Of a DNA stretch of 64,000 bases, positions 8,183-24,156 are shown one piece after another. The stretch covers positions 96,001-160,000 of IMG/VR virus record IMGVR_UViG_3300021364_000001; one strand, given 5' to 3'. Source of the DNA: a virus. A program made the position numbers and the translations under genes. Every line of letters begins with the position of its first letter. Within the stretch, counting starts at the first letter, position 1. The notes under the pieces are model-generated. The model searched no databases, was not told where the DNA came from, and saw nothing but the letters and a program-made list of their open reading frames with translations.

Positions 8183-9166
8183 TTATTTGAGGGTGTCAAC
8201 AGCAGCGAGTGCTTTCTGACGAAGACTCTCGGGGAGAGGAACATAACCAAGGGAGTCTGCCTTCTGTTGCTGAGTAGGTGTCAGCATCCAGCGAAGCATA
8301 TCCTTCACATCATCATTCTTTTCATACTCAGGGTATGCCAGGATCCAAGTCAAGGAGACGATAGGATAAGCATTGGCACCAGCAGGGTTAGCATCAGCAC
8401 CACGGAGTTGATCGTCAAGAACGATCTCACCAAGACCAGCAGAAGCAGTCTCAGCAGATGCCTTCACGAAGTTACCAGCACGGTTCTGAATAGCAACCTG
8501 TTGCAGGTCACCCTTCACATAACCATAGTTGACATAACCGATGCTACCAGGGGTGTTGGTGATAGCAGCAGCAACGCCACTGTTACCTTTACCACCGATA
8601 CCAACAGGCCACTTTACAGACTTACCTGTGCCGACTGTTTTCTTCCACTCAGGAGAGAATGCGGACAGGGAGTTGGTGAAACCTTTGGTAGTGCCAGAAC
8701 CATCAGAACGATGGACAGTAGCAATACGCTGATCAGCACAACCGAAGGCAGACCAGTTAGTAATCTTACCCAGGAAGACATCAGCAAGTTGAGTCTGAGT
8801 CATCTTGACTTCACAACCAGGGTTGTTGTAAGTCGGGACAATGGCACCACCAGTGATGGGGATGTGGACCATAGGCAGTTTCTGCTTAGCATCACTTACA
8901 GCACCATCAGAGGCACCGAAGTCAACGGTCTTAGCAGTGAACTGACGGACACCAGCACCACTACCAACTGCTTGGTAGTTGACTTGGTTGCCAGTAGACT
9001 TAGCAAGGTCCTGCAACATGTTGTTATACAACATAGCAGGGAAAGAAGCACCAGCGCCATTCAATTTGTATGGCTCTTTTTGACTGACTTCTGTGTTCTC
9101 GGTGGAAGCGCAAGCTACCATCAGGGGCGCTGCCAAGGCGGCAGCTGCGATTGCTTTGAGTTTCAT
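8183..9166 (-). CDS. pstS: Phosphate ABC transporter substrate-binding protein
   Basis: Lipobox LMVAC, GAGASFP, GSGAG, DFGASD, RSDGSGTT, YPIVSLTW. Confidence 0.97.
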   Translation of the reverse strand: MKLKAIAAAALAAPLMVACASTENTEVSQKEPYKLNGAGASFPAMLYNNMLQDLAKSTGNQVNYQAVGSGAGVRQFTAKTVDFGASDGAVSDAKQKLPMVHIPITGGAIVPTYNNPGCEVKMTQTQLADVFLGKITNWSAFGCADQRIATVHRSDGSGTTKGFTNSLSAFSPEWKKTVGTGKSVKWPVGIGGKGNSGVAAAITNTPGSIGYVNYGYVKGDLQQVAIQNRAGNFVKASAETASAGLGEIVLDDQLRGADANPAGANAYPIVSLTWILAYPEYEKNDDVKDMLRWMLTPTQQQKADSLGYVPLPESLRQKALAAVDTLK

Positions 9167-9177
9167 CAGTCAGTACC

Positions 9178-9537
9178 TCAGAACTTGTACTTGGTGCCGA
9201 CTTCTACTTTCCAGTCACGAGTATCATCATCTTGGAAGAGGTTCTCAAACTTACCATAAGCAGAGAAGGAATCAGTGATCTTGACTTTGCTGCCAACTTC
9301 CAGAGCAGTGAAGCTGGTGCTGTCAGCACCGTCAGGAACGCTCACACCCAGACCACCTTCGATGTAGGGGGAGAAGCGACCAGTTTTCCATTCATATCCG
9401 ATACGTCCTTGGTGAACTGCCTTGGAATAATCCTCGTCAGTACCTTTGAATTCGTGTTTGGACTCGACATAGGGTCCTGCAAGGGCAGGTGCTGCGATCA
9501 TAGGCAGTGCCAGAGCAGCAAGAGCGATTGCTTTCAT
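9178..9537 (-). CDS. Small secreted beta-strand (outer-membrane-like) protein immediately upstream of pstS
   Basis: Signal peptide MKAIALAALALPMIAAPALA; alternating amphipathic strands; C-terminal ...GTKYKF. Confidence 0.8.
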   Translation of the reverse strand: MKAIALAALALPMIAAPALAGPYVESKHEFKGTDEDYSKAVHQGRIGYEWKTGRFSPYIEGGLGVSVPDGADSTSFTALEVGSKVKITDSFSAYGKFENLFQDDDTRDWKVEVGTKYKF

Positions 9538-9607: not shown

Positions 9608-9626
9608 GATTTAAGGGTAGGTTAAT
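9608..9626 (-). promoter_or_regulatory. Putative Pho box
   Basis: Minus strand ATTAACCT-acc-CTTAAATC: two TTAA half-sites at 11-nt period, upstream of TG-n-TACAAT (9583-9591) and the pstS operon. Confidence 0.6.
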
Positions 9627-10083
9627 CCTGATTTCCTGACCCAATCTCGTAGAGTTTGAGTTTCTGGTGGTCGGGAATAATCTTCCGTAAGTTTACCACA
9701 AGCATTCCGTTCTTGAAATCAACTGATGCGACTTCCACATCGTCGGCTAGATTGAATCCTCTGGCGAAGGTTCGGGTGGCAACCCCGCGATGCATATACT
9801 CCTCCTCACCCTTGTTCTTCGCCGCCTTAGACCTGACCAGGAGGACGTTACTCTCAGTAGAGACTTCAATTTCGTCCTTGTCCCAACCAGCAAGTGCCAT
9901 TTCGATCCTCCACTTAACCTCAGATTCTTTCACGAGGTTGTAAGGGGGATACGCTTCGTTGACTGATCCCATTCCATAGGAATGCAGTCGGTAAAAAATG
10001 TCATCCAGTCCGACGCTGTATCTTTCAGCAGCATCCACCACGGCATTAAGATCTTTCGTGGTGAGTTTCCTCAGTCCAGTCAT
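9622..10083 (-). CDS. hsp20: Small heat shock protein (IbpA/B-like)
   Basis: YPPYNLVK, IEMALAG, YMHRGVATRTFARGFNL, GMLVVNL. Confidence 0.96.
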   Translation of the reverse strand: MTGLRKLTTKDLNAVVDAAERYSVGLDDIFYRLHSYGMGSVNEAYPPYNLVKESEVKWRIEMALAGWDKDEIEVSTESNVLLVRSKAAKNKGEEEYMHRGVATRTFARGFNLADDVEVASVDFKNGMLVVNLRKIIPDHQKLKLYEIGSGNQD

Positions 10084-10145
10084 TGTACTTCTCCTAGTAA
10101 GCGAGATTAGATTGTGTGGACCCCGAAGGCATCCACTGTTATTTA
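10084..10145 (-). promoter_or_regulatory. hsp20 leader: late-promoter TAAATA, C(UUCG)G hairpin and ROSE-like SD-sequestering hairpin
   Basis: TAAATA at 10140-10145; hairpin at 10116-10136; UCUCGCU-UACU-AGGAGA at 10090-10106. Confidence 0.6.
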
Positions 10146-10233
10146 GAGAAAAGGGATCAAAGTTTAATAGTGGAGAACCGTATTAAAACTTTCGGTTTTC
10201 CGCAGTCACATTTCATGCACATGTTCTTTTTCC

Positions 10234-10239
10234 TAAATA
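10234..10239 (+). promoter_or_regulatory. T4-like late promoter core TAAATA for the plus-strand genes
   Basis: CTAAATAG about 25 nt upstream of the ATG at 10265. Confidence 0.6.
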
Positions 10240-10264
10240 GAGATAGGTTCCCAAATAATGCACG

Positions 10265-10768
10265 ATGAAGAAGTTCCTTCCTCTCGTTATGCTACTGATG
10301 ACCGCAAGTGCAGCAAATGCTGGCGGACTTGTTACTAAACATGCTTCTAGCACACAACTGACTGTTGATGCTGCTCGCTCTACTGCTTCCAGAATTGGAC
10401 ACACCTTCACCACTTCTGGCAGTGGCGTAAGCACCACTGATGGCACCACTTCGGGTGTTGTTGGTAACGGTGTGCTGATGACCAGCGATGGTTTTACTGG
10501 TGCTTCCAGTGTCGTCACTGCTTCTCAGGCAACCTCTGGCGATGCATTCTCTTACAGTGCTTCTTATACCCAAGGCGATGCTATCCCTACCTCTGCTGCT
10601 ACCGTAGGTGCTATTCCTAACTTCGGTTCGGTTACTTCTTACGAATCTGGCACTGCTGGATCATTGGCAGGCACAATCACAAGTGGTCATGCTATTACTC
10701 TGACTGCTGGTGGTGCAGGTACATCTGCAACGGGACAATTCGTTAGCGAGATCACCGTTATTGACTGA
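10265..10768 (+). CDS. Secreted S/T/G/A-rich protein
   Basis: Signal peptide MKKFLPLVMLLMTASAANA; phage-like codon usage; the next gene follows a GAGGAGG SD. Confidence 0.85.
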   Translation: MKKFLPLVMLLMTASAANAGGLVTKHASSTQLTVDAARSTASRIGHTFTTSGSGVSTTDGTTSGVVGNGVLMTSDGFTGASSVVTASQATSGDAFSYSASYTQGDAIPTSAATVGAIPNFGSVTSYESGTAGSLAGTITSGHAITLTAGGAGTSATGQFVSEITVID

Positions 10769-23796: not shown

Positions 23797-24156
23797 TTAT
23801 TCAGGTGTCCCTTGCGGGTCTTCGTCCAACGGTCTTATGAACTGGGAAGCAACCATGTCTGTTGCTTGCAAGTAATCATACATATACCTGACTGCTGAGT
23901 CTGGCATCGTGTGGTTCCCGCAAGTAAACACATCACAGACTGCCATGTTCTTCTCTGGCCAAGTGTGAATGCTGATATGTGACTCTGCTAGGAGTGCGAC
24001 AGCAGTAACACCGAGTGGAGAGAACTTGTGACTGGTAATGTCTAGCAAGGTTGCTTGTGACATTACCGCTGCATTCACCAGACAGTTTCTAATATCTGCT
24101 TCATCGTCCAGTTTATAGAGTGGACAACCTTTGAGTGTGAAGAGTATGTGTTTCAT
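23797..24156 (-). CDS. speD: Pyruvoyl-dependent decarboxylase proenzyme, SpeD/AdoMetDC family
   Basis: GVTAVALLAESHISIHTWPE (E-S cleavage site), CDVFTCG. Confidence 0.92.
   Translation of the reverse strand: MKHILFTLKGCPLYKLDDEADIRNCLVNAAVMSQATLLDITSHKFSPLGVTAVALLAESHISIHTWPEKNMAVCDVFTCGNHTMPDSAVRYMYDYLQATDMVASQFIRPLDEDPQGTPE

Follow-up and report, generated by a model that had tools for sequence, protein, structure and literature searches.

The hsp20 mRNA of this virus has a 5′ leader with two hairpins, the second of which masks the Shine-Dalgarno (SD) sequence; comparison of homologous leaders leads us to regard this predicted structure as established. Judged by its sequence, the leader is a virus-borne, weakened member of the ROSE-like family. 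On balance we favor, with moderate confidence, the reading that it is a ROSE-like element, homologous to the ibpA leaders of proteobacteria, that gives temperature-dependent control of Hsp20. The thermosensing itself we infer by analogy with the bacterial elements.

The hsp20 locus

The virus record is complete (187 kb, with terminal repeats), and the window, the whole stretch of 64,000 nt that was analyzed, is one part of it. The genes flanking the leader all match T4-like cyanophages (350 Synechococcus and Prochlorococcus phage records). The locus contains the following genes:

8183–9166, minus strand: PstS-like binding protein
9178–9537, minus strand: cyanophage outer-membrane-protein-like gene
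9622–10083, minus strand: hsp20, 153 aa, IbpA-type (class A) small heat-shock protein (Pfam HSP20, 1.3e-14)
From 10265, plus strand: divergent gene

The leader sits in the 181-nt gap between hsp20 and the divergent plus-strand gene. Like ROSE_3 elements, it is part of the 5′ UTR of a gene for a class A small heat-shock protein (sHSP), and it stands directly before the reading frame at 9622–10083. Among NCBIfam models, IbpA is the top model for Hsp20 (3e-27, residues 20–147 against profile positions 10–136). The sHSPs of cyanophages resemble those of bacterial class A more closely than cyanobacterial ones (PMC3827213), and hsp20 is among the 25 genes common to all sequenced cyanomyoviruses (PMC3037559). 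The pstS gene lies ~460 bp 3′ of the hsp20 stop codon in the window and directly downstream of hsp20 in phage P-RSM4.

Leader architecture and folding

The leader is made up of the following elements, given in 5′ to 3′ order:

10139–10146, minus strand: CTAAATAA, a T4-type late-promoter-like box with the core TAAATA at 10140–10145
10116–10136, minus strand: hairpin I, GUGGAU-(G bulge)-CC-UUCG-GG-GUCCAC, G+C-rich, as read from the sequence and by folding
10107–10115, minus strand: A-rich linker ACAAUCUAA, 9 nt, unpaired in the folds
10090–10106, minus strand: hairpin II as a whole, UCUC-G-CU / UACU / AG-GAGA
10100–10106, minus strand: anti-SD strand UCUCGCU, the ROSE U(U/C)GCU motif, with G10102 as the bulged G
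10096–10099, minus strand: hairpin II loop UACU
10090–10095, minus strand: SD sequence AGGAGA, paired with the anti-SD strand
Between hairpin II and the AUG, minus strand: spacer AGUACA
10081–10083, minus strand: AUG start codon, not part of hairpin II and separated from the SD by 6 nt

The initial annotation had described TAAATA followed by a stable C(UUCG)G hairpin at 10116–10136, and a hairpin at 10090–10106 that masks the SD with one G bulged, the AUG following 6 nt on. All letters and coordinates of the first hairpin proved right (folding gives it −12.2 kcal/mol), and the second was right to the base. The AUG is unpaired, the same as described for Pseudomonas.

Folded alone, hairpin I reaches this energy with a z-score of −3.2, one of 200 shuffles being as good, and hairpin II folds at −4.1 kcal/mol into exactly the described pairing (z = −2.1, nine of 200 shuffles). 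The energy of the whole 72-nt leader is not unusual (z = −1.17), so energy alone was set aside as support; its minimum-energy fold flips with the choice of 3′ boundary and was likewise given no weight. By predicted SD occlusion hsp20 ranks eighth among 46 SD-bearing ORF starts in the window, a crude control set that includes spurious ORFs. On this one sequence the structure is plausible and not beyond chance; it is beyond chance because it is conserved and covarying in more than 60 distinct homologous leaders.

Promoter and transcript 5′ end

In most homologous leaders a TAAATA or TATATAA box stands at a fixed distance from hairpin I. Across 53 aligned close leaders the box columns T6, A7, A9, T10, and A11 are at ≥90%; TAAATA is absent in some relatives. 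The cyanophage late promoter has been described as NATAAATA (PMC2984593). Within the window CTAAATAA occurs five times, all on the minus strand (1.3 expected), and TAAATA 23 times on the minus strand versus three times on the plus strand, a bias that fits a late-promoter motif for minus-strand gene blocks. No sigma-70-like site was found. The fixed distance of the box, the strand bias, and the lack of a sigma-70-like site together point to a late-type promoter, which would place hairpin I at the 5′ end of the late transcript; the predicted transcript 5′ end lies at, or within a few nucleotides of, the base of hairpin I. We rejected the possibility that hairpin I is the terminator of the upstream gene, since that gene is divergent and no U-run follows the hairpin.

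A second CTAAATAA occurs at 9608–9601 (minus strand), 14 nt past the hsp20 stop codon. Directly after it, and ahead of the outer-membrane-protein-like gene, is a 9-bp hairpin (GGACCUCUG/CAGAGGUCU, ~9598–9573, minus strand) that may serve at once as terminator of hsp20 and as the 5′ hairpin of the late mRNA that follows.

The arrangement upstream of hsp20 varies among phages. In S-PM2, S-CAM4, ACG-2014f, and S-SSM7 (loci L085–L088), the gene just upstream of hsp20 is regA, a translational repressor gene in the same orientation, with a terminator-like hairpin between the two genes in S-CAM4, ACG-2014f, and S-SSM7. Close relatives with the regA-hsp20 layout carry CCCCTTCATCGC in place of the TAAATA box.

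Conservation and covariation of the two hairpins

We compared the last 90 nt of the leaders of 80 IMG/VR hsp20 loci with 78%–95% protein identity (the close set), which gave 61 distinct leaders, 53 of them aligned. Each of the 61 close hsp20 loci that we tested has the two-hairpin leader. Of the 53 aligned leaders, 52 carry CTCGCTT and one carries CTTGCTT, and AGGAG is nearly invariant; the linker and the hairpin II loop are variable. Among homologues the linker is partly conserved (ACACAA) and of variable length, the hairpin II loop varies in both sequence and length (3–8 nt) around fixed stem strands, and AUGAC(U/G)GG is kept.

A divergent set, in which Hsp20 is 28%–63% identical, consists of named phages plus their IMG/VR relatives. 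We find the two-hairpin layout in all of P-RSM4, P-RSM3, S-CREM1, S-CAM9, S-PM2, S-CAM4, ACG-2014f, S-SSM7, S-TIM5, and the pelagiphage HTVC008M. Hairpin I in these phages has entirely different outer stems, and its loop is UUCG, GCAA, GAAU, AUAA, or ACUCA; the U·G (or C-G) pair, the bulged G, and the CC/GG pairs are all kept. Paired substitutions are visible within the close set (GGA/UCC, GGU/ACC, GAA/UUC, GAU/AUC), further stems (GACAAC/GUUGUC, UAGAAU/GUUCUA, GUAGUC/GACUAC) again retain the core of U·G, bulged G, and CC/GG, and over 60 distinct leaders seven of the eight hairpin I pairs have changed on both sides.

Hairpin II is conserved in a different manner. Its bulged G and its CU/AG pairs are invariant in 65 distinct leaders, and CUCGCU or CUUGCU is found in 65 out of 65 distinct leaders carrying the motif, the UUGCU variants forming G·U pairs. 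The leaders thus show the layout described for ROSE_3: two hairpins, the 5′ one G+C-rich and stable; an SD held in the 3′ hairpin by imperfect pairing with U(U/C)GCU; and a conserved bulged G opposite the SD (G10102 in the window). The outer stem of hairpin II takes several forms:

UCUC/GAGA: 11 distinct leaders, as in the window
(A)CUC/GAG(C): 31 distinct leaders
CUUU/GAGG: four distinct leaders, the pelagiphage type, with G·U pairs
CCAC/GUGG: four distinct leaders, the S-TIM5 clade
AAUC/GAUA: one leader (L131), whose sister (L129) has ACUC/GAGA

In the S-TIM5 clade (CCAC-G-CU/AG-GUGG) and in L131 (AAUC-G-CU/AG-GAU), the SD itself has changed and the change is compensated. A changed SD matched by a changed opposite strand is hard to explain except by selection for the hairpin II helix.

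The same pattern holds over 60 distinct sequences in a model-based alignment. The hairpin II pairs (41-59, 42-58, 43-57, 45-56, and 46-55) are standard in 57–60 of the 60 sequences. Over the whole structure standard pairs occupy 88% of cells, against 35%–57% when partners are slid, nine of 14 pairs have changed on both sides, and none of 500 shuffles reaches the observed values; this alignment was fitted to R1, a covariance model built from the close-set leaders, so all of these numbers lean towards the structure. An alignment of the close set made with MAFFT only gives covariation in the same direction.

Two groups of leaders depart from the common form. In the leaders of IMG/VR relatives of pelagiphage-type Hsp20 (L109–L116), which R1 does not detect, a variant anti-SD ACUGUCU replaces CUYGCU ~35 nt upstream of the ATG; it still pairs with AGGAGG, and the bulged G is shifted by one position. 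In S-CAM4 (L086, 273–331) the annotated ATG is one base after the SD, and the tblastn match to Hsp20 begins 18 nt upstream, so the start codon may be mis-annotated. The S-CAM4 helix GUC-G-CU/AG-GAC was not counted as a compensatory change, because its SD abuts the annotated AUG.

Covariance-model searches

Searching 9900–10400 with 4227 Rfam families, we found ROSE_3 (RF02523) as the only regulatory match, full length, at 21.5 bits (E = 0.037); the gathering score of 43 bits is not reached. The aligned leader shares with ROSE_3 the hairpin core, identical to the consensus GGAUGCC..GGGUCC, together with CUCGCU, AGGAG, and AUGACU. The linker ACAAUCUAA aligns with the ROSE_3 linker, and two 2-nt deletions relative to ROSE_3 shorten the phage hairpin II. 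Against 20 related loci, ROSE_3 matched two, with 35.1 bits (an S-PM2-like locus, E = 7e-4) and 20 bits, and gave no match in the other 18 at E up to 5. When RF02523 was run on the phage's own genome it missed the hsp20 leader and returned one 9.4-bit chance match. Neither ROSE1 (RF00435) nor ROSE_2 (RF01832) matched in the window at E up to 10.

The initial annotation had proposed a ROSE-type element and had pointed to Rfam ROSE models and to conservation of the UCGCU/SD pairing as its checks. Rfam, covariation, and the likeness to bacterial ibpA leaders all back the structural reading: The pairing is kept in homologues, with SD changes compensated, and ROSE_3 matches over its full length. 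The Rfam score stays below the cut-off, and neither of the other two ROSE families matched.

On the phage's 187 kb, R1 finds one site, the hsp20 leader (74.1 bits), and the element thus occurs only on hsp20 there. Among the hsp20 loci tested, R1 detects all 61 of the close set and 14 of 25 from the divergent set. A weak R1 match elsewhere in the window (23874–23932, minus strand; 12.2 bits, E = 0.52) has a hairpin-I-like stem without the CUCGCU/SD hairpin and is probably due to chance. In a related phage contig, sub-threshold glutamine riboswitch matches lie ~200 nt upstream of hsp20 (L020:1213–1264, minus strand; RF01739, 25.7 bits with a cut-off of 35; RF01704, 24.9 bits with a cut-off of 33).

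Similar leaders in bacteria

A scan for GGATGCC-N4–8-GGGTCC-N8–20-CTCGCT over one genome per prokaryote species gave at least 120 matches, those in G+C-rich genomes being mostly chance. Among the matches listed, at least ~30 are followed directly by an SD and the AUG of an IbpA-type ORF (..YPPYN..AVAGF..). Such ibpA-linked matches occur in Pseudomonas, Stutzerimonas, Azotobacter, Acetobacteraceae, Rhodospirillales, Sphingomonadaceae, Stellaceae, and Ferrovibrio. The phage-derived R1 scores several bacterial ibpA-type loci at 16–24 bits, and hairpin II has a median energy of −2.75 kcal/mol in phages (n = 42) versus −5.55 kcal/mol at the bacterial ibpA loci (n = 24), with nominal melting temperatures (Tm) of ~57°C and 71°C, respectively; both the scores and the stability comparison are partly circular, because the bacterial loci were picked with a pattern that has parts in common with the model. 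The G-C pairs that flank the SD/anti-SD core on both sides in ROSE_3 are missing on the upper side in phages: The phage CU/AG pairs border either on the loop or on a U-A pair, whereas Pseudomonas-type loci have CUGA/UCAG.

Predicted response to temperature

By partition-function folding of 53 phage leaders, the probability that the SD is unpaired rises from 0.13 at 10°C to 0.23 at 45°C; for Pseudomonas-type leaders the corresponding values are 0.06 at 25°C and 0.15 at 42°C. Nearest-neighbor folding puts the two-state Tm of the phage hairpin II at ~57°C–64°C. In silico melting of the phage leader from 5°C to 50°C shows no sharp transition and a small rise in SD accessibility between 10°C and 30°C. 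We rejected such melting as a functional test, as it is equally flat for Pseudomonas-type leaders; because the curves are flat even for proven bacterial thermometers, nearest-neighbor folding is uninformative on the switch.

The bacterial elements work at 25°C–42°C with a nominal Tm above 70°C, and the phage value is ~14°C lower, which makes a response within 10°C–30°C plausible. By analogy, the phage set point would lie below the bacterial 25°C–42°C and within the 10°C–30°C range of marine picocyanobacteria. Alternatively, hairpin II might be open at all host temperatures, because the upper G-C clamp is missing, and the P. putida leader no longer repressed once its upper G-C pair was lost (PMC3669281).

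The mechanism that we favor runs as follows. The 5′ untranslated leader of the hsp20 mRNA, ~55 nt, would act as a short two-hairpin ROSE-like element. Transcription would start from the late-type TAAATA box, leaving hairpin I at the very 5′ end, where it would help hairpin II to fold and probably protect the mRNA. At low temperature hairpin II would limit 30S binding, and warming would open its weak helix and yield more Hsp20 per transcript. The phage could thus control its own chaperone by temperature without the host heat-shock sigma factor. The leader was probably acquired together with the IbpA-type gene.

Alternative explanations

The nearly flat accessibility of the SD predicted between 10°C and 30°C, along with the nominal Tm of 57°C–64°C, would also suit a constant translational attenuator and mRNA stabilizer, with hairpin I protecting the 5′ end, hairpin II setting a fixed, low initiation rate, and no useful temperature response in the host range. 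Hairpin I of Pseudomonas is itself temperature-insensitive and has been proposed to stabilize the mRNA (PMC3669281), and 5′ hairpins may be general in late mRNAs, given that the next late gene also starts with CTAAATAA and a strong hairpin. Such an attenuator nevertheless leaves the invariant bulged G and the imperfect helix unexplained, as a perfect CUCCU would be tolerated; the motif found in the phages has been proven by experiment to act as a thermometer in bacteria (PMC3669281), and in the phage genome the element occurs only on a heat-shock gene. We consider it unlikely.

A further possibility is that the leader serves mainly as an operator for Hsp20 feedback, free Hsp20 binding the structured 5′ UTR and repressing its own translation until accumulating unfolded proteins draw it off, perhaps combined with thermosensing. 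In E. coli, IbpA binds ibpA 5′ UTRs and represses translation, an activity that depends on R93, on an aromatic side chain at position 34, and on a basic one at position 97 (PMC10474464). The offset of the IbpA profile maps these three to phage R104, Y/F45, and R/K108. In a set of 12 diverse phage Hsp20 proteins, all have R104 and either Y or F at position 45, and 11 have R or K at position 108; the K98-equivalent position is not conserved, the arginine is kept for structural reasons in many sHSPs too, and the residue mapping rests on the profile offset rather than on a solved complex. At the RNA level, conservation of the hairpin I core between Pseudomonas and phages is stricter than a generic stabilizer would call for. 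That feedback is the leader's main role seems to us quite doubtful.

The two inputs might be joined in one switch, tuned to ocean temperatures, in which hairpin II, shorter than in the bacterial relatives, opens at ~15°C–25°C and free Hsp20 binds the conserved structure of hairpins I and II via R104 and represses its own synthesis, the repression being relieved once unfolded proteins titrate Hsp20 away. We put this forward as a tentative and rather improbable proposal. If true, chaperone supply would be matched to both temperature and protein-folding load late in infection, and hairpin II strength would track the thermal niche of each phage lineage.

It is very improbable that the conserved ACTCGCTTAA is instead a DNA element, a Pho box for host PhoB: hsp20 adjoins pstS in many cyanophages, with pstS nearby both in the window and in P-RSM4, and ATTCAAACTCGCTTAAATA upstream of S-PM2d hsp20 has been predicted as a Pho box, but we reject this reading on the published S-PM2d data, since the fragment did not bind PhoB and the gene was unresponsive to low phosphate (PMC10976474), while the compensatory changes with the SD show selection at the RNA level and the element is present where hsp20 is not next to pstS.

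Novelty and significance

Among the papers searched, we found none that links cyanophage or hsp20 to RNA thermometers, and titles and abstracts on ROSE-like RNA thermometers and phage gave no report of a phage ROSE element. According to a 2024 review, phage RNA structures that respond to temperature had yet to be explored (PMC10884466). The element is missed by standard Rfam annotation.

As a conserved cis-regulatory RNA, the leader offers a direct experimental handle on hsp20. It suggests that the dosage of Hsp20, and not just its presence, is under selection, possibly with temperature. ROSE-type thermometers, known from alpha- and gammaproteobacteria, would extend to viruses, and to a cyanobacterial and SAR11 setting and a temperature range where none has been described; gene and RNA regulator would have moved into phage genomes together. 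The leader also explains a published negative result, namely the failure of the S-PM2 hsp20 "Pho box" to bind PhoB.

Comparison with known systems

With ROSE1 of Bradyrhizobium hspA (RF00435) and the enterobacterial ibpA ROSE_2 (RF01832), the phage leader has in common the U(U/C)GCU anti-SD, the bulged G, and an association with class A sHSP genes. Those elements are built of three to four hairpins, the last one long and holding both SD and AUG, whereas the phage leader has only two hairpins.

Control in a phage mRNA has a parallel in lambda cIII, where the translation initiation region changes accessibility with temperature through two alternative folds, with RNase III involved; mechanism, gene class, and sequence are all unrelated to those of the hsp20 leader. 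The Synechocystis hsp17 thermometer is a short SD-masking hairpin on a small heat-shock gene, acting in a cyanobacterial cell at moderate temperatures. It is a single hairpin with an internal loop, lacks the U(U/C)GCU motif and the bulged G, and precedes a cyanobacterial-type sHSP. It has no sequence relation to the phage leader. The hsp17 thermometer is cited in PMC3669281.

The autoregulation of E. coli IbpA resembles the phage case in the IbpA-type protein, in the critical arginine, aromatic, and basic residues, and in the ROSE-type leader. It differs in that the equivalent of K98 is not conserved in phages.

The closest counterpart is the ibpA ROSE_3 element of Pseudomonas (RF02523). Shared features are a ~60-nt 5′ UTR before an IbpA-type gene, a G+C-rich hairpin I with the GGAUGCC-loop-GGGUCC core (U·G pair, bulged G, CC/GG), an A-rich linker, an SD paired to CUCGCU with one bulged G, and an unpaired AUG. 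Elements of this two-hairpin design have been shown to function as thermometers in P. putida and P. aeruginosa, with four- to sixfold induction between 25°C and 42°C; only hairpin II melts, it is sufficient by itself, and deletion of its bulged G locks it shut (Krajewski et al. 2013, PMC3669281). The phage element differs in its ROSE_3 scores (20–35 bits versus the 43-bit cut-off) and in a hairpin II that is 2–4 bp shorter and ~2.8 kcal/mol weaker. It also stands behind a T4-type late-promoter-like box and not a sigma-32 promoter, and it occurs in viruses of cyanobacteria and SAR11. Because it falls below the ROSE_3 cut-off and is without the upper G-C clamp, the phage leader is, by these comparisons, a divergent, weaker version of the short ROSE-like family.
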